Shown one piece after another: positions 3,001-62,534 of a stretch of 64,000 nt of DNA. This DNA is from an uncultured Parcubacteria group bacterium. GTDB lineage: Bacteria; Patescibacteriota; Patescibacteriia; UBA9934; CAMTUG01. The stretch lies in the NCBI GenBank assembly GCA_947084965.1, contig CAMTUG010000003.1:64360-128359 (forward strand). Direction: 5' to 3'. The position numbers and the translations under genes are program-made. The notes beneath the pieces were generated by a model. The model did no database searches. It was given only the letters and a program-made list of their open reading frames with translations, and was not told the origin of the DNA. Position 1 is the stretch's first letter. Every line of letters starts with the position of its first letter.

Positions 3001-6000
3001 CCTGCATTCGTGATTGTAAGCGGGGTTCCATTAGAAGCACCGAAGTTTTGGCTAATACTGACGACCGATGCGTTGTCATTAACTGCGCCACCGCCCGCCG
3101 TAGCCATTTGCGAGCTTACGTTCAAAACCGCACCGGTTGTAGTGAGGGTTGTTCCTCCGCCATTTGAGGTGAGGGAGCGGGTTAAATTGAGGAGGTTTCC
3201 CGAATCCGTTGCGTTCGCGTTATACGTGGCGGTGTGGTTGAGGTCGAGAAGGATACCGCTCGTGATGGCTGAGGTCGAACTAATGCTGCGGGCCGTACCG
3301 GTTGTCAACGAATTGACGGTAAACGCCTGGGCTGTGCCACCCGATCCGGTATAGCTTTGGTTCATGCTGAAACCCGTTTGGTTCCAGGTAAGCAAATTAT
3401 CAAAGTCCACGGTATCTTCGATGTCATCAAAGTCAATACAATCAGAACAGTTGAAACTTGTTGTCGATGTGGCGGCGATCGTTGTTCCAGTGACGGTGAG
3501 GTCATCAGCGACGGTGACCGCACCGGAGTCGTCAGATATATCCCCATTTCCGCTAATATCAAGAGATGAGTTTAAAATCGTGTCCCAGCCGGTCCCCACG
3601 TTGATAGCTGTCGAGTTTGTTACTCCGCCCCCAGCCTCCGTTAGTGGGCCAAAGGCGAGCCCGAAAACGGTATTTGTTCCGGCGGTAGATGTGGCGGTAA
3701 AACCAACAGCATTTAAGATGGTATACGTATCTCCTCCGTCTCCAGTAAAGCCCGGAGTCAAGCTGACAATGCTTCCAGACGCGTTACTGACATCAAAGGT
3801 TAGGGACAGGGCATCCGTATTATTTGTTGTTGATGCCTGCCCAGTGTTGGTGAGGGTGAGCATGTCTGCGGTTGGAGCGCCGGTTGCAATGATCTGTATG
3901 TTTGTGTCCGTGTCTGGATTAAAGATAACGTCTCCGGCTCCGGTGCCGACAAACGAAAGGTTAAAGCCGGCAACGTTAATGGCGGTTGCTGCGTCAAGGA
4001 TGGGGGTGTCGGCAAAATCATCAAAATCAATACAATCGGCACAGTTCAACGAGGTGACCGACGCCGCTGAAATCGTCGTGCCGGTGGTGATGGTGAGGTT
4101 GTCGTCGATCTGCACGGTGCCCCCGGCGTTAATAAGGAGAGTTGCCCCGTCTGAAGTAATATCATCTCCGTTCACGGCCAAGTCGCCGGCAAGGTTTAGG
4201 CCGCCTCCAGCCACAAAGTCCGTTCCAGCATCCCCAATGTTAAGGACGAAGTTATTATTCATGTCCAGGTTACCGGTCAAAGAAAGAGATCCGGCAGAAA
4301 CGGCACCACTGAAATCTCCAGCGACCCCATAAATCGTATCCCAGCGTGTTCCCGCCGCACCGATTTCTGCAGACCCCGCCCCCAGTTGCGGCAAAAAGTC
4401 ATCATCCGTGCCGAGCTGGACGGTGCCAGAAGAGTCGATCGTCATGGTGCCAGTCGAGGTGATCGATCCGTCATAATAGTTAGTGGAGAACGCTCCGGCT
4501 GTGAACCCGATATCAGAAAATGCTTCCCCATCCGCTTCGATACGGAAGACAGGATCATCGGCTCCGGCAAAATCCGATTCGATGATCACCAGGTCGTCGC
4601 CTTCCGTTGCCCCGTCGTAGTCGATGTACAGGCCCGCCCCGGTCGTGTCGCTGTTGATCGAGCCGTCAATATTAATCTCAACCGCATGACCGCTCGTCAT
4701 CGCGTTTGCTGTTATCACGATGCCGTTACTGATCGTCGCGGACGAAACAATGGAAATACTCTCCCCCTCTCCGGTATGGGTGAGCGAAACAGCTCCCGCG
4801 TCAGCTGCCTGATCAATTCGCAGGGCAGTTCCCCCGTTGCTGATCGTCCCCCCGGCAGCCGTTGTAATGGTGTTGCTGATGTGCAGAATCGGTTCAAGGA
4901 TTTCGAGGTCTGTGCCTGCCCCTGAGGCGACCAACGTGCGGCGCAAATTGGCGATCGCCCCCTCCAGCGTCACTGGCACGCCACCGGCATAGGTTGCTGT
5001 GTGATCAACATCTAGGAGAATGGCATCTGTGGTCGCGCTGGACGTTGATGTCAGGTCAAGGAGAATACCGTCGACAAGGCTTGAGCTTGTCAGATTCATC
5101 GCCCGCCCGCTGGTCAGAGAGTTGGCGGTGTAGGTAAATCCAGTGGTGGTGTCGCCCGTGAAAGTTTGAGACCACGTTCCCGTGCCTTGGTTTAACGTCA
5201 GCGATTCGCCCGAAAAGTCGAGCGTGTCTTCCAAATCATCAAAATCAATACAATCGGCACAGTTCAACGAGGTGACCGACGCCGCTGAAATCGTCGTGCC
5301 GGTGGTGATGGTGAGGTTATCATCGATCTGCACGGTGCCCCCGGCGTTAATAAGGAGGATTGCCCCGTCTGAAGTGATATCATCTCCGTTCACGGCCAAG
5401 TCGCCGGCAAGATTTAGGCCGCCTCCAGCCACAAAGTCCGTTCCTGCGTCCCCAATGTTAAGGACGAAGTTATTATTCATGTCCAGGTTACCGGTCAAAG
5501 AAAGAGATCCGGCAGAAACGGCACCACTAAAATCTCCAGCGACCCCATAAATCGTATCCCAACGTGTTCCGGCTGCACCGATTTCTGCAGACCCCGCCCC
5601 CAGTTGCGGCAAAAAGTCATCATCCGTGCCGAGCTGGACGGTGCCCGAAGAGTCGATCGTCATGGTGACGATACTTGTGATGCTTCCACTATCGATCGCG
5701 ATAGGATTGGTAAATGTTGTTGAACCGTCGTCGGCAAATGTTACAAAGGCCGCTCCCCCGTCGGCGATGCTGAACGTACCAGCTCCATCAAGGTCAATGA
5801 TCAAATCGAACAAGGATGGATTGATGGTCGTTGCCGCATCAAGAACAAGGGAGTCAGAAAGCTCTGTGAAATCAAGAGCGTCATCCGTAATGTCGATAGT
5901 TACGGCCGCGGACTCAGAACCCGAGCCGGCAACAGTGATGTCTCCGGACCCAGCATCCGCCACGGTGGCGACGTAGTTTCCCGTTGTATCTGCTCCAAGG

Positions 6001-24696: not shown

Positions 24697-24773
24697 TGGT
24701 GCCTCGGGAGGGACTCGAACCCCCAACCTAATGGTTAGAACCCACTTGCTCTATCCAGTTGAGCTACCGAGGC
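24697..24773 (-). tRNA. tRNA-Arg (anticodon TCT).
   Basis: The reverse complement reads GCCTCGG...anticodon loop gt-TCT-aa...GGGGGTTCGAGTCCC...CCGAGGC-A-CCA. Confidence 0.8.
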
Positions 24774-24952
24774 TTGGAGATCATCCAAAACTTGCGAGCT
24801 GTTGGCTTGCGGGGCCCCGCCACTTCGTCGACGTACATTTTGAGTACGTCTCCGAAGATGGCCGCCCCGCGCACCAACATCTCATCAAGTTTTGAACGAT
24901 CTCTGGAGCAAAGGAGCGTACAGGAAAAGTAAATCTGCTACAATAGTGCCAT

Positions 24953-27881: not shown

Positions 27882-28072
27882 ACGCTCGATATTTTACGAT
27901 ACAACCACCGAATGCACTAGCAGTGTTATCCACGCGAGATTACTTGCATCCCTGTGTCTATGGGATATTCATGAGTATTCGCTTGGTATTCTTGTGGTAT
28001 GTGACGCAAAGCGTGCATTCTATTCAGATCCGGGCATCTTCTCGGTTTGAGGTGTTCAAAAGTTGATGTTGC

Positions 28073-28146
28073 GCAAAGTGGAAGTACAGAAGTCAGTTTT
28101 ATATCTCAACTTAGCAATAAAAGTAACTTCTGTACTTCCACTTTGC
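28073..28146. repeat. Perfect 21-bp inverted repeat (22 bp including one flanking pair) with a 32-nt loop.
   Basis: GCAAAGTGGAAGTACAGAAGT ... ACTTCTGTACTTCCACTTTGC. Confidence 0.7.
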
Positions 28147-28338
28147 GGGCGTTGTCTATTTGAGACACCGAACACCCGGGAGGCGTGCGCACGGTGACAG
28201 GGCGAAATCCATCAATGAACCCGATTAATTGACAATTCCGGCCAAATTTAGTAAGATTGTACCATTCAATATTAATCGACGATCGCCTGGGATTCTGGCT
28301 TTGACCTGATTCTCGGACGTTCGTGACAACCCATCCTT

Positions 28339-31508: not shown

Positions 31509-32702
31509 ATGGAACGCCTGCACATTCCACTTCGATCCGGCCATTCAACAACCCGCCCCGTGAGGCGGGTTGTTTGGCAGTATCTTGTGTTTATGGTGCT
31601 GCTCAGCGCCTGTTTTTACGCAGCTGCGCGTTCGATGATTTCGGCGACGCACCTGACAAACGCCTTTCCGGGTGCGCAAACAGTCATTGATCTCGTCGGG
31701 CACCGTGGAATTGCAGAGGTCGCTCTGCACACTGGCGATCTCCCATTGCTTACCAAACGTCCACTCACCCTGAATGATTTAACCCCGTTCATCCGCGGGG
31801 AGGTCGCTCTAGCGATCTACCCGGATCATACACGCGCAGTAGCGTTCAAGGGGGGTGTCGACGAGATAACCAAAGCTAGGTGGAAGGAAATTGGGGTGTT
31901 TGTGCATGAAAAGGAAGGTTACAGCTTCATTTTTGGCGAATCTTCTGTAGAACTTGGGGAGATGGATCGCACATGGTCTTTGTTCGCCTTCCTGCCATCT
32001 TATGCCGGTCGGGTACTGGGAAACGGGGAGGATGGACCGATCTATTTGATGCAGGACGGAGTGGACTTGACACTCACTTTTGACGACACATACAGCAAAA
32101 AGCGCGAGGATCTTGCGTTAAATACGATTGCCTGGATCCCGTTCGGTGCACTTCAGATCCCCCAATCGCTTCAAACATTCTTTCCGTCGGAGGCGCTTCA
32201 GGGTACAGGCACGCTCCTCGTGGTAAAGGATGATACGGGCGTGGCGTTCCAAATCGACCTGGATCGCGCTCTTGACAGCACTATTTTGGCTGAGATTATT
32301 CAAAAGTCTGCTTTACGCGTCGTGCCGAGTACCGCTACGCTCACTTTGTTAGATGGAACACTGGTTGATGAGCTTCGTTCAAGCACAGATACGATTAAAA
32401 CGAGTATTGTTGAGGATGGAGATCAGGTCCGCTTGATCGCCGAAGTCGACGGGGAGGTACTTATTGCCGAGAAAACAGAAAATCACACCAAGATCCGGAA
32501 TCGCACAGCCGATCTGTATACCCTGAACGACGCTGAGCCGCTCGGTAACCTCTGCCAAAAGTCCTCTGGGGCGCTGATCGTCACCAGTAAACTCCTCGAG
32601 AGCGGGTTACTCACCTATACCGTTTACGATCCAACGTTTGAGCTTGTGCAATTTGCGAAGATCATCAATATTTCTGGTAAATCCACCAGGCTGTGTTGGT
32701 AA
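31509..32702 (+). CDS. Hypothetical membrane-anchored protein of 397 aa.
   Basis: ORF track. It has an N-terminal hydrophobic segment. Confidence 0.45.
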   Translation: MERLHIPLRSGHSTTRPVRRVVWQYLVFMVLLSACFYAAARSMISATHLTNAFPGAQTVIDLVGHRGIAEVALHTGDLPLLTKRPLTLNDLTPFIRGEVALAIYPDHTRAVAFKGGVDEITKARWKEIGVFVHEKEGYSFIFGESSVELGEMDRTWSLFAFLPSYAGRVLGNGEDGPIYLMQDGVDLTLTFDDTYSKKREDLALNTIAWIPFGALQIPQSLQTFFPSEALQGTGTLLVVKDDTGVAFQIDLDRALDSTILAEIIQKSALRVVPSTATLTLLDGTLVDELRSSTDTIKTSIVEDGDQVRLIAEVDGEVLIAEKTENHTKIRNRTADLYTLNDAEPLGNLCQKSSGALIVTSKLLESGLLTYTVYDPTFELVQFAKIINISGKSTRLCW

Positions 32703-33307: not shown

Positions 33308-33432
33308 TAAATCATAAAATACGGGCGATCTGCTCGTCCTTCGGCTTTGAAATCACTCGATGTAGGTCTGACTACACCTCGTGATTTCTGCGCCTCCAGG
33401 ACTTCGCATCTCATCCCGTATTTTATGATTTA
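33308..33432. repeat. Conserved ~89-nt element, copy A, enclosed by a perfect 18-bp inverted repeat.
   Basis: Arms TAAATCATAAAATACGGG / CCCGTATTTTATGATTTA. The core cgatctgctcg...ccaggacttcgcatctcatc is shared with copies B and C. Confidence 0.7.
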
Positions 33433-33483
33433 CTTACGCTATTGCGGATCCGTACTTTTCCTGTATACTTTGATAATTAGCTA

Positions 33484-33879
33484 GTGTTTGTTCAAATTGA
33501 GTTTATGGATGAAGGATTTGTGAGCGCCATGAAACTTGCCCTCCTGGACGAGAAGTCAAAACTTGAAGGGGAGCTTTCGAAGTTTGCCCACCGTAACCCA
33601 AAGGCGACGGACGAAGATTTTGATACAAATTTTCCGAATCTTGGGGATAAAGAGGACGAAAATGCCGCCGAGGTCGCTGCGTACAGCGACAATCTTTCGC
33701 TCGAGGGGGAGCTTGAAAAGCAACTTCGCGATGTGATAGGTGCTCTGAAGATGGTTGAAGATGGAGTGTATGGGATTTGCAAGTACTGCAAGCAGGAGAT
33801 TGGTCAGGCCCGATTGACCGCTCGTCCGACCTCCTCTTCCTGTATCGACTGTAAAAAGACGCTGACGCAGGAGGCGTAG
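33484..33879 (+). CDS. DksA/TraR-family C4 zinc-finger protein.
   Basis: CKYCKQEIGQARLTARPTSSSCIDCKK. Confidence 0.55.
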   Translation: MFVQIEFMDEGFVSAMKLALLDEKSKLEGELSKFAHRNPKATDEDFDTNFPNLGDKEDENAAEVAAYSDNLSLEGELEKQLRDVIGALKMVEDGVYGICKYCKQEIGQARLTARPTSSSCIDCKKTLTQEA

Positions 33880-47789: not shown

Positions 47790-47948
47790 AAAATCCCCTT
47801 GCGGGGGCTGCGAGAGACGCGATGTTACGAGGTCGAGTATATCTGTTGCAAGTGCGAGGAGAGAGATTTTGCTCACCCGAAGGCAAGCGAGCTCTTGCGG
47901 GACATATCCGACACCATCGGACTCTCACAGCCCTCGGGAGGGGATCTT

Positions 47949-48072
47949 GTGGATTTCCCAAAATCGCGATCTGCTCGGGCTTCGGCTTCGCTCCGGCTCA
48001 CCGTAGATTTGACTACGCCTCGCCGTCGCTTGCCTCCAGCCCTTCGCATCTCATCGATTTTTTGAAATCCAC
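47949..48072. repeat. Conserved ~89-nt element, copy B, enclosed by an 18-bp inverted repeat (16/18 pairs).
   Basis: Arms GTGGATTTCCCAAAATCG / CGATTTTTTGAAATCCAC. The core is 80-85% identical to copies A and C. Confidence 0.7.
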
Positions 48073-48250
48073 TCGGACTAGGATCTCATTATAAGTTGGC
48101 AATTCGGTCCTGACAAGCTCCTTGGAAGGTTGGAGAAAGAGAAATTGGACAGTGGGTAGAAACCGTATCCAACCAGAGAAGCGATCGGTGCGAAGAAAGC
48201 CGGAGCCTTGTTTGCATCAATCTGTTCCCCCTCTCTCCCTCCAACCTTAC

Positions 48251-48376
48251 AAGGAACGTCTGAAAATGGCGACCTGCTCGTGCTTCGGCATCACTCCGGC
48301 TCACCGTAGGGTTCGCTACGCCTCGCCGTCGTTCGCCTCCAGCCCTTCGCATCTCATCCATTTTCAGAAGTTCCTT
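48251..48376. repeat. Conserved ~89-nt element, copy C, enclosed by a 19-bp inverted repeat (18/19 pairs).
   Basis: Arms AAGGAACGTCTGAAAATGG / CCATTTTCAGAAGTTCCTT. Confidence 0.7.
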
Positions 48377-48572: not shown

Positions 48573-48601
48573 TTGACATCGGTTTTGGCCGGTGGTACTA
48601 T
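48573..48601 (+). promoter_or_regulatory. Putative rpoB promoter TTGACA-17-TACTAT.
   Basis: Read directly from the sequence. Confidence 0.5.
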
Positions 48602-48673
48602 CACAGCGCTTTTTTTCGCTAACTCCTCGGTGTGATCCATGAGCTGGCGGCCGTTACAATCAAATAAATTCAG

Positions 48674-48713
48674 CGCCTTACCCCACCACTGCAATGGTGG
48701 GTAGGGCGTTTTT
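48674..48713 (+). terminator. Intrinsic-terminator-like hairpin plus T-run, 12 nt upstream of the rpoB ATG. A candidate attenuator.
   Basis: CGCCTTAcCCCACCACtgcaaTGGTGGGtAGGGCG followed by TTTTT. Confidence 0.55.
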
Positions 48714-48724
48714 GCATCTTTATT

Positions 48725-58507: not shown

Positions 58508-59245
58508 ATGATGAAAAAAGTCCTTCAGGATGCGGGACTGAACGGTAACGAAGCCACGGTGTACCTGGCTATTCTTGAGCTTGGTTCGACCAATATCGCC
58601 ATGCTTACAAAGGAGACAAAGCTCCCGCGCTCAACGGTCTATAGTGTCCTGGCTACGCTCGAGCCGACGGGATTAGTGTTTACATATCTCAGGAAAAAGA
58701 CGCGGATGTACACGGCCCATGATCCGAGTATCATCCTTAAGAAAGCAAAGGAAAGAGTGGCTTTGATTGAAGAGGCTCTGCCTGAGCTTAACGATCTCTA
58801 TCGCTCATCACAAAGTCATCCGCAAATTCGGTACTTTCAGGGACGATCGGAGATTCGAGAAATGTATGATGGGATTTTAAAAATGCGCGGACTAAAAATG
58901 TACGACATCATTTGCTCTGAAGAGGCGTGGTTAGAGATGGGTCAGTCGTTTGCGGAACGGTTCAAGTCCAAAAGAGCTGAAAAGAAAATCATGACCCGTT
59001 TGATTCTGGGTCATTCCCCTCCTGCACTGGCTCGCAAGAGGGCAGAAGAGGAAACGTATTCTGAAGTGAAAATCATTCCGCCAGGACTTCACTGGTCTGC
59101 GACCGCCGGTTGCTATATCTTCGAGGATCGAGTAATTTTCTTGGGCTACAAGAAGGAGCACATCGCGGTGGAGATTCAATCAAAGGAGATTGCTCAGTTG
59201 ATGCAGATGAACTTCGAGTTCATGTGGCGGTTTCTGGCGAGATAA
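58508..59245 (+). CDS. TrmB-family transcriptional regulator (regulator 1).
   Basis: N-terminal wHTH (ATVYLAILELGSTNIAMLTKETKLPRSTVYSVL) plus a TrmB C-terminal domain. Confidence 0.6.
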   Translation: MMKKVLQDAGLNGNEATVYLAILELGSTNIAMLTKETKLPRSTVYSVLATLEPTGLVFTYLRKKTRMYTAHDPSIILKKAKERVALIEEALPELNDLYRSSQSHPQIRYFQGRSEIREMYDGILKMRGLKMYDIICSEEAWLEMGQSFAERFKSKRAEKKIMTRLILGHSPPALARKRAEEETYSEVKIIPPGLHWSATAGCYIFEDRVIFLGYKKEHIAVEIQSKEIAQLMQMNFEFMWRFLAR

Positions 59246-60712: not shown

Positions 60713-60752
60713 AAACGCAGCGCCGCCCCGGGAGTGTCCCAGGGCGGGCGTG
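60713..60752. repeat. 40-bp GC-rich hairpin repeat, copy 1.
   Basis: The sequence aaacgcagcgccgccccgggagtgtcccagggcgggcgtg is identical to copy 2. Confidence 0.7.
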
Positions 60753-61737: not shown

Positions 61738-62496
61738 ATGGACCTACGAAAAGGACTTCAACAAACAGGGCTCACAGACAAGCAAACGGATGTGTATTTG
61801 GCCTGTCTTCAGCTCGGGGTGGCTACGGTTTTTGAGATCGCAAAATACGCGGCACAAAAGCGGCCGACGACGTATTTGATTTTAGATCAACTCGAAGAAA
61901 TGGGATTGGTCAGTCGAGTTCGAAAAGAGACTAAGGTTTTTTATAAAGCCGAAGAGCCAGAGCTGTTGCTTACTCAGATCCAATCAAAAGAAAAGTTGGT
62001 ACAGGATTTACTTCCCTCACTGAAAGCGATCTACAACGTTGATCCGGAAAAGCCGGTTATCAAAATTCACGAAGGTATTTCTGGGGTCCGTAATGTATAC
62101 ACGGAGATCTTTACTTACTTAGCGAATCATCCAGAAGAGGAGCTCCTCATTTTTGGATCACTGAAAGATGCTCTAGAGCACTTCGAGACAGAAGTCGTTG
62201 ATTACTTTTATACATCGATCGGTCGAGCGAAGACGCGTGTGCGCGAGATCGGTAATGATGATCATGAAACGCGAAAGTACTATCGGGCGTCTGCACGATT
62301 GAACGAGAATCATCAGATTCGCCTCATTCGTCACGAAGGGGAGTTCGTCCAAACGGATAACTTGTTGTACGGCAATCGTCTGGCGACCTTTTCTGTTAAA
62401 GAACATCTGTTTGTCACAACAACAGAATCAGCTACGATTACCGAAACGTATCGCACCTTATTTAACATGGCGTGGAAAAGTGGAAAGCCAATTTAA
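61738..62496 (+). CDS. TrmB-family transcriptional regulator (regulator 2).
   Basis: wHTH KQTDVYLACLQLGVATVFEIAKYAAQKRPTTYLILDQL. Confidence 0.6.
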   Translation: MDLRKGLQQTGLTDKQTDVYLACLQLGVATVFEIAKYAAQKRPTTYLILDQLEEMGLVSRVRKETKVFYKAEEPELLLTQIQSKEKLVQDLLPSLKAIYNVDPEKPVIKIHEGISGVRNVYTEIFTYLANHPEEELLIFGSLKDALEHFETEVVDYFYTSIGRAKTRVREIGNDDHETRKYYRASARLNENHQIRLIRHEGEFVQTDNLLYGNRLATFSVKEHLFVTTTESATITETYRTLFNMAWKSGKPI

Positions 62497-62534
62497 ACGC
62501 AGCGCCGCCCCGGGAGTGTCCCAGGGCGGGCGTG
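62495..62534. repeat. 40-bp GC-rich hairpin repeat, copy 2.
   Basis: Identical to 60713-60752; it overlaps the stop codon of TrmB regulator 2. Confidence 0.7.

Follow-up and report, generated by a model that had tools for sequence, protein, structure and literature searches.

A multi-copy hairpin family of Patescibacteria with a conserved, strand-specific fold

The ERIC elements of enterobacteria (enterobacterial repetitive intergenic consensus, or intergenic repeat units, IRU) are imperfect palindromes of about 127 bp whose reported effects depend on orientation. REPINs consist of two near-identical, inverted REP (repetitive extragenic palindromic) sequences, and both REPs and REPINs are recognised as single strands and mobilised by RAYT (REP-associated tyrosine) transposases. 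The Correia or NEMIS elements of Neisseria are miniature inverted-repeat transposable elements (MITEs) with conserved 26-bp terminal inverted repeats (TIRs) and TA duplications, which are co-transcribed with neighbouring genes and processed by RNase III. In the tRNA-spacer small RNAs (sRNAs), such as 3'ETS-leuZ of E. coli, and in the tRNA-linked small nucleolar RNA and microRNA (miRNA) units of eukaryotes and herpesviruses, the tRNA promoter drives transcription and a processing enzyme sets one end of the RNA. The candidate phyla radiation (CPR, or Patescibacteria) is a large, mostly uncultured group of bacteria with tiny genomes and few known regulators, for which, to our knowledge, almost no non-coding RNAs have been described. 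Here we analyse a hairpin element of about 122–126 nt that occurs four times in a 64-kb stretch of a Parcubacteria group genome (contig CAMTUG010000003.1; 'the window'). It belongs to a previously uncatalogued multi-copy hairpin family, new to Rfam and restricted to the CPR, whose fold is conserved and strand-specific.

The preliminary description of the window, drawn from its letters alone, reported three copies of the element, and all three are real and were exactly placed. Copy A (33308..33432, minus strand; 124.6 bits) has a core at 33325-33415 and a closing stem formed by 33308-33325 and 33415-33432, in which 18/18 positions pair. Copy B (47949..48072, minus strand; 111 bits) lies in the DUF167-rpoB spacer, and copy C (48251..48376, minus strand; 108 bits) lies 303 nt from it in the same orientation. 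The near-perfect pairing given for these stems stands for A and for C (18/19), while that of B is imperfect, with about 16 of 18–20 pairs in the flanking inverted repeat rather than 16/18. A fourth copy, D, had been missed. It lies at 24777..24903 on the minus strand (5' arm 24903-24887, 3' arm 24793-24777), is a divergent member without the GAA/GA loop described below, and was found with a covariance model (56.2 bits, E ~2e-11). The identity between cores, put earlier at 80–85%, is about 87–89% for B against C and about 67–74% for A against either over the first 57 nt. Each of the conserved blocks GCGAYCTGCTCGNNCTTCGGC and GCCTCCAGNNCTTCGCATCTCATC is present at exactly three positions in the window, on the plus strand only, against 0.00–0.03 occurrences expected from shuffles.

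Each window copy folds into one rod-like hairpin, and the two strands differ markedly in stability. For A, B and C the minus strand reaches −68.5, −69.0 and −63.4 kcal/mol and the plus strand −54.4, −49.5 and −47.3 kcal/mol, a minus-strand advantage of 13–20 kcal/mol. We refer to the better-folding strand, which is the minus strand in 4/4 window copies, as R and to its complement as P. Read on R from the outside inwards, the hairpin begins with a closing helix of 16–18 bp whose sequence is almost free, with an A-rich/U-rich tract beside the core. The base of the core, 5'-GAUGAGAUGC...GCAGAUCGC-3', is invariant and contains a bulged A, a U-G pair and a tandem G-A (GA/GA) loop. There follow a GAA/GA loop, a covarying helix of 5 bp, a GGA/GA loop, a variable helix, a fourth GA-rich loop and an apical hairpin of 5–6 bp (CGUAS...SUACG). 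Three tandem G-A internal loops are conserved on R. The CTTCGG motif, which had been taken for a cUUCGg tetraloop, is the complement of GCCGAAG, which on R forms a helix and a G-A internal loop, not a hairpin loop.

The family was assembled from pattern scans and a covariance model (R1). Scanning one genome per GTDB species returned 43 loci, of which about 31 are true members and the remainder correspond to chance expectation; most of these belong to Uhrbacteria, Parcubacteria, Lloydbacteria or unclassified Patescibacteria. A further 60 loci came from a scan of metagenomes, and with R1 the family reached 82 non-redundant elements, almost all from CPR metagenome-assembled genomes (MAGs) or metagenomes, with up to 3–4 copies per locus or window, and they are strictly intergenic. 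Among the member loci, L003/L062 derive from Hainich H41/H52 groundwater and L008 from groundwater of the Rifle type. Two pattern matches in viral contigs were both rejected by the covariance model, and no case was found in which a gene separates the two core halves, as in a split or autonomous copy. At the gathering score, Rfam 15 recognised only six tRNAs in the window. Relaxing the threshold to E values up to 10 at the three sites gave one chance match (RAGATH-25, 13.6 bits against a cutoff of 49), and the only matches of an extended variant of the element were to plant miRNA-precursor hairpins, with scores far short of the cutoffs. No account of the element turned up in the literature, which was searched both by topic and by sequence string. 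The earlier statement that this is not a known RNA family therefore holds against Rfam, and the element is far from confined to the copies first seen.

Taxonomic assignment of the members needs some care. The window itself comes from a Uhrbacteria-like member of the Patescibacteria. Its RpoB is 76–89% identical to RpoB of Uhrbacteria and Patescibacteria MAGs, and an exact look-up of its RpoB and RpoC found neither in the records. Two member loci carry the label 'uncultured Gammaproteobacteria'; one (L040) encodes an RpoB homologous to that of the window and the other (L010) is orthologous to a Patescibacteria contig, and at least one such label is wrong. Several MAG records with this title carry CPR-type genes, as possibly does a 'Methylomirabilis' record (L012), and these labels appear unreliable.

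Strand specificity extends to the whole family. The R fold is more stable than its complement in 81/82 members, with mean energies in two context classes of about −63 and −70 kcal/mol for R against −48 and −57 kcal/mol for the complement. Across the 82 members, R folds contain 248 G-U pairs and P folds only 69. This excess points to selection on the R strand, because deamination of the coding or leading strand would place the G-U pairs on the opposite strand; a mutational bias was rejected on this reasoning. One U-G pair (alignment columns 27-120) is invariant, and at columns 63-83 G-U is the commonest pair (G-U 20, G-C 8, A-U 5). The apical hairpin, whose covariation had been noted in the window, covaries family-wide (columns 69-77: CG 15, GC 9, UA 5).

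RNAalifold on a MAFFT alignment of 34 members predicted 38 pairs, 29 of which show double compensatory changes. In this structure 92.5% of cells form pairs, compared with 68.5% in shuffled alignments (0/500 shuffles reach 92.5%), and sliding the partners relative to each other lowers the value to 38–43%. The pattern by which the seed members had been chosen fixes part of the core. In members recovered by the covariance model alone, however, even the 'invariant' base has been altered in a compensatory way, with C-G or G-C in place of A-U, as in GAUGCGCUGU...ACAGAGCGC and GAUGGGAUGC...GCAGACCGC. The suggestion of a structured small-RNA family with a closing helix kept by structure is thus borne out as regards the structure, on the strand opposite to that first described; the element may also act as a small RNA.

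The closing stem is constrained in length far more than in sequence. Its length is sharply peaked at 16–18 bp (43/80 elements) around a core of 88–91 nt, and closing stem and core base together form about two helical turns of duplex. Over the family the stems contain 499 Watson-Crick, 26 G-U and 5 A-C pairs. They had been called completely different between copies; there is in fact a weak consensus between them, which on the 5' arm reads rGGAAC...yy..GAAAAyn, with rGGAAC distal, GAAAAyn beside the core and the mirror image on the 3' arm. Arms generally diverge faster than cores, and in the orthologous copies L008, L010 and L099 they differ through compensatory and G-U changes. The cores of L075 and L068 are 98% identical and their arms unrelated, which could reflect core-only movement or gene conversion anchored at the invariant core ends. 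When arm sequences were sought as copies of nearby DNA or as guides, they occurred only at the element itself.

An extended subfamily of seven copies in six loci carries a further conserved inverted repeat of 27 nt, TATAGTCATCACACTATGAAACAGGACTT, and gains a conserved asymmetric loop, giving hairpins of about 180 nt with −95 to −115 kcal/mol. The copies lie at 3951-4133 in L031, 1647-1826 in L041, 3508-3689 and 4496-4676 in L053, 3472-3654 in L064, 1329-1510 in L066 and 4080-4260 in L100. The two copies in L053 have opposite orientations and bracket about 800 bp encoding an open reading frame (ORF) of 138 aa without a Pfam match; the two ORFs between the pair match nothing in Pfam and lack homologues in the other loci.

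The genomic context of the family was examined in 4–15 kb of sequence around each match. Eight of the 82 members precede a tRNA gene by 2–9 nt (two each for Arg, Gly and Leu, one each for Val and Ile), and in all eight the tRNA strand carries R. Promoter-like boxes lie upstream of the hairpin in these copies, so that the hairpin would form the pre-tRNA 5' leader. Copy D is one such case. It ends 3 nt from a tRNA gene directly downstream on the same strand (24700..24773, minus; tRNA-Arg by ARAGORN), with which it makes up an element–tRNA unit, and about 11 nt ahead of the hairpin there is a promoter-like TACGCT box. A promoter-like motif, (T)ACTTTTCCTGTAYNCT, is common to 24915-24935 (minus strand) and 33452-33470 (plus strand), preceding copy D and its tRNA gene in the first case and the dksA-like gene just past copy A in the second.

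In spacers between co-directional protein genes the orientation is reversed: 20/24 elements are antisense, meaning that the mRNA would carry P, and 4/24 are sense, counts that rest on crude ORF calling with the key cases checked against recognisable genes. The window fits this division, with D sense to its tRNA and A, B and C antisense to plus-strand neighbours. Copy A lies between an unannotated gene (31509-32702, plus) and the dksA-like gene (33484-33879, plus), and copy B is antisense to both genes flanking its spacer. In L019, an R-sense copy preceding tRNA-Val and an antisense copy between nusA and an ORF assigned as rimP by its position lie on one strand only 1.2 kb apart. Orientation therefore follows transcript type and not replication direction, and a replication-strand explanation was rejected. 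The recurrent neighbours are all housekeeping genes: rpoB (downstream of copies in the window, L030 and L040), EF-Tu/EF-G-family GTPase genes (tuf/fusA), which elements precede or follow, nusA, rplK and rplL, each with a copy upstream, infA-rpmJ and tRNAs. Many elements abut a stop codon, 4–25 nt ahead of the next start codon.

The family has been gained or lost between close relatives. Six loci (about 68 kb) from relatives with 83–89% RpoB identity contain no element, against four in the 64 kb of the window. Among these loci are the syntenic trigger factor-NUDIX-DUF167-rpoB region of L046 and, in L049, the 89%-identity relative, the 545 nt that precede rpoB. The L049 spacer can be aligned with the window until about 10 nt before copy C; beyond that point the sequence is unrelated, and the rpoB site contains neither the core nor the arms. 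An empty site was sought there, and the alignment covers only the flanks. Conversely, L068 and L083, like L041 and L066, are otherwise unrelated contigs that share only the element. These observations support mobility or turnover of the whole element. Orthologous copies can be well conserved: L008 and L010 are 72% identical over 3.3 kb of flanks, compared with 96% in the core and 83% in the arms, which speaks for selection and against simple transposition.

We consider that the family is best read as a dispersed, probably mobile, structured-RNA element selected on its R strand, with a probability of about 0.5. According to this reading the R strand would act as RNA, the tandem G-A loops would present a protein-recognition surface, and the two-turn, sequence-free basal helix would serve as a clamp or as a site of double-strand-specific processing or protection. 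In the tRNA-linked copies, cleavage by RNase P at tRNA +1 would release the 5' leader as a stable hairpin RNA. Other copies, for example B, may use a promoter of their own. A near-consensus sigma-70-like promoter at 48088..48116 (minus strand; TTGTCA-17-TATAAT, 11/12), a consensus match and not evidence of function, has a −10 box ending about 15 nt upstream of the 5' arm of B in the R orientation, and is a candidate promoter for an independent minus-strand transcript of this copy. The whole unit would spread by transposition or duplication, with cores sometimes homogenised between copies, and copies would survive mainly where they do no harm, antisense in operon spacers and sense in tRNA leaders.

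Several results weigh against this interpretation. R-strand transcription is predicted solely at loci with a tRNA gene or promoter-like site. Since most copies are antisense and show no consistent R promoter, the production of R-strand RNA at most loci is unexplained. No common promoter was found upstream in the R orientation across the family loci, and a modest excess of −10-like hexamers there may partly consist of reverse-complemented start codons. R-specific pairing is nevertheless kept even where only P is expected to be transcribed, possibly through transcription of the antisense strand, an intermediate of single-stranded DNA or selection acting on propagation of the element. Clustering of flanking ORFs identified no partner protein, only housekeeping genes recurring near the elements. 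As to mobility, direct repeats of 3–8 nt around 62 elements occurred about as often as expected, so no target-site duplication was detected. Repeats of 2 nt were found 11 times against 5 expected; a palindromic TA duplication would be hidden in the stem, and the stems show no preference for starting with TA. No transposase was found in about 600 kb of flanks by ORF clustering, without a transposase scan using hidden Markov models (HMMs). Copies within a genome are fairly diverged, as B and C are, with no sign of a recent burst.

A more ambitious extension can be imagined, in which the R hairpin is a new class of protein-binding small RNA released from tRNA 5' leaders by RNase P, and the many antisense copies in housekeeping mRNAs, such as those of rpoB, nusA, the elongation-factor GTPases and the ribosomal-protein operons, are its targets. 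Sense copies are perfectly complementary to every antisense copy over invariant core segments of 12–14 nt. If true, this arrangement would tie the expression of the transcription and translation machinery to tRNA transcription in the regulator-poor CPR bacteria, but we regard it as a long shot.

The alternative that survives best is that the family is a purely selfish, non-autonomous DNA element of the REPIN, MITE or ERIC kind, mobilised in trans as a single-stranded R hairpin, for example by an HUH/Y1 enzyme, with the conserved loops serving as a transposase recognition site and without RNA function. We think this a serious rival, though somewhat unlikely. Its multi-copy, strictly intergenic occurrence at a fixed size, its patchy presence in the window and not in relatives' loci and its recurrence in unrelated flanks are all as such an element would show, and the near-identical L075 and L068 cores and the inverted repeat of the extended subfamily also favour it. 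Strand-specific tolerance of G-U pairs, which in DNA would be G-T pairs, would suit recognition as single-stranded DNA. Set against this, target-site duplications and a recurring transposase-like neighbour are both lacking in the analyses above, the diverged within-genome copies carry no burst signature, and the conserved core halves are not inverted copies of each other. The arms are not double-strand TIRs either, because both are purine-rich on the same strand. Orientation tracks transcript type (R-sense at tRNAs in 8/8, antisense in operons in 20/24) and not one replication-linked rule, and the orthologous copy is conserved far better than the flanking genes.

We find it improbable that the element serves highly expressed operons in cis as a module for processing, attenuation or stability, either an RNase III-type site or a protective hairpin that works in whichever orientation it is transcribed, in the manner of the processing sites between cistrons of ribosomal-protein and RNA-polymerase operons. 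The neighbouring genes are those expected of such a module, as is the position of many copies between a stop codon and the next start, and the two helical turns of duplex formed by closing stem and core base would provide a double-stranded site. In L040 and L030 the element also directly follows an attenuator-like terminator hairpin in the rpoB leader. The mRNAs, however, carry the weaker-folding complement, whereas selection acts on R; the same operon junctions carry no element in close relatives; a generic double-stranded site leaves the invariant purine loops unaccounted for; and no terminator-like site was called at the window copies. The second idea proposed earlier, in which a mobile core of 89 nt lands in the loop of a hairpin that was already there, for example a terminator, is very unlikely indeed: the faster divergence of arms, the L075/L068 pair (explicable also by gene conversion) and the position of some copies just after terminator-like hairpins speak for it, but arm length is sharply peaked, the arms share a consensus whose A-tract and U-tract beside the core are the reverse of terminator geometry, they evolve by compensatory and G-U changes in orthologues, and the uninterrupted hairpin expected at an empty site, a loop-less perfect palindrome, was seen nowhere, L049 having neither core nor arms.

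The region upstream of rpoB holds further structures. Copies B and C had been placed in the rpoB leader. They do lie upstream of rpoB; the gene preceding them is a DUF167/YggU gene and not rplL, and since they lie upstream of the predicted rpoB promoter (48573-48601) they are not necessarily within the leader. The leader itself (48573-48715) comprises a promoter, TTGACA-17-TACTAT, followed by a conserved attenuator-like hairpin with a U-tract just before the start codon (CGCCTTACCCCACCACTGCAATGGTGGGTAGGGCG TTTTTGC in the window), with equivalents at 630-850 in L040, 5140-5385 in L030 and about 500-540 in L049. Between B and C, at 48119-48255, a long-range hairpin has 24-nt arms (88% complementary) enclosing 89 nt. 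The syntenic spacer of L046 contains an equivalent at 4892-5055, with a different arm sequence, 25-nt arms and 114 nt between them, and the 3' arm is recognisable in L049; this hairpin may be a separate conserved structured element upstream of rpoB. Just downstream of DUF167, about 90 nt of intergenic sequence (47854-47941) are conserved in L046 (~5185-5210) and L047 (3638-3729) and have no Rfam match. Their counterparts in the two relatives lie on the opposite strand relative to rpoB, which suggests a small independent gene.

Elsewhere in the window, an unrelated intergenic hairpin at 28072-28147, with arms of 31 nt (94% complementary) around a loop of 14 nt (CGCAAAGTGGAAGTACAGAAGTCAGTTTTAT / ATAAAAGTAACTTCTGTACTTCCACTTTGCG), matched the covariance model only through its stem. 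An exact 40-nt direct repeat (60713-60752 and 62495-62534, 1.8 kb apart) lies near tRNA genes and near a duplicated ORF of about 250 aa (58508-59242 and 61738-62493). A 300-nt repeat with 96% identity (4006-4305 and 5224-5523, 1.2 kb apart) lies in repetitive coding sequence.

The family is a searchable candidate for either a lineage-specific RNA–protein system or a new mobile element recognised as a single strand. Its function can be tested directly in existing groundwater metatranscriptomes by means of the covariance model and the element–tRNA units. The element also yields spurious ORFs and is in this respect an annotation hazard for CPR MAGs.

A number of known structures were considered and rejected as identities for the element. 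It is not an intrinsic terminator: no terminator was called by the scan at the window copies, the U-tract is enclosed within the closing stem, and elements sit within operons and between promoters and tRNAs. Inspection of the alignment found no GTTRRRY at the ends, as an integron attC site would have, and there are no regular cassette arrays, the neighbours being housekeeping genes. A retron msr-msd would also have a flanking inverted repeat, but the family is multi-copy with tRNA, rpoB, elongation-factor GTPase and nusA neighbours. No reverse transcriptase was present among the Pfam-scanned genes flanking the window copies, the other loci having been checked by ORF clustering only, without HMMs. 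The element resembles the T-box words GAUGAGA and CGAGCA; as a K-turn or T-box Stem I base it was rejected, since the tandem G-A loops have 0- or 1-nt bulges or an extra base on the wrong side and cmscan gave no T-box match. Self-cleaving ribozymes, 6S RNA, signal recognition particle RNA, selenocysteine insertion sequences (SECIS) and small ORFs were dropped on anatomy.

The nearest described systems in size, location and patchiness are the ERIC/IRU, REPIN and Correia elements, and the present element, which we place among the structured extragenic palindromic repeats, departs from them in their defining features. Like ERIC, it is a long imperfect hairpin of similar size in transcribed intergenic regions and operon spacers, with a copy number that varies greatly between related genomes. 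ERIC copies, however, share their whole sequence including the ends, whereas here the closing stem is nearly free and the purine loops are invariant; the CPR family also shows strand-specific selection, is linked in sense orientation to the 5' ends of tRNAs and does not resemble ERIC in sequence. With REPINs it shares extragenic, multi-copy, patchily distributed long hairpins with compensatory changes. It differs in that its 5' half (GATGAGATGCGAAG..TGGAG) and 3' half (CGAAG..CGAGCAGATCGC) pair with conserved G-A mismatches and are not inverted copies, and in that copies within a genome have diverged far more than is typical of REPIN populations. No RAYT gene was seen, the flanking-ORF clustering giving no recurrent transposase-like neighbour, without an HMM scan of the flanks.

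Correia elements are likewise inverted-repeat elements of 100–150 nt with long double-stranded RNA stems, and the family has the multi-copy, intergenic character and the presence/absence differences of a MITE. In contrast to Correia it has no target-site duplication, and a conserved outer inverted repeat occurs in one subfamily only, the closing stems of the core family sharing no more than their weak consensus. The tRNA-precursor sRNAs resemble the arrangement in the tRNA-linked copies, where a structured RNA stands beside a tRNA on the same strand, with a promoter upstream of the hairpin. Here, however, the element would be the 5' leader, it belongs to a dispersed repeat family in which most copies are not tRNA-linked, and the arrangement is known from genomic position. 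What goes beyond the ERIC, REPIN and Correia descriptions is the combination of invariant asymmetric purine loops, a fixed-length, sequence-free helix, strand-specific selection and element–tRNA units, and there is a small chance that these features belong to a genuinely new RNA regulatory system.

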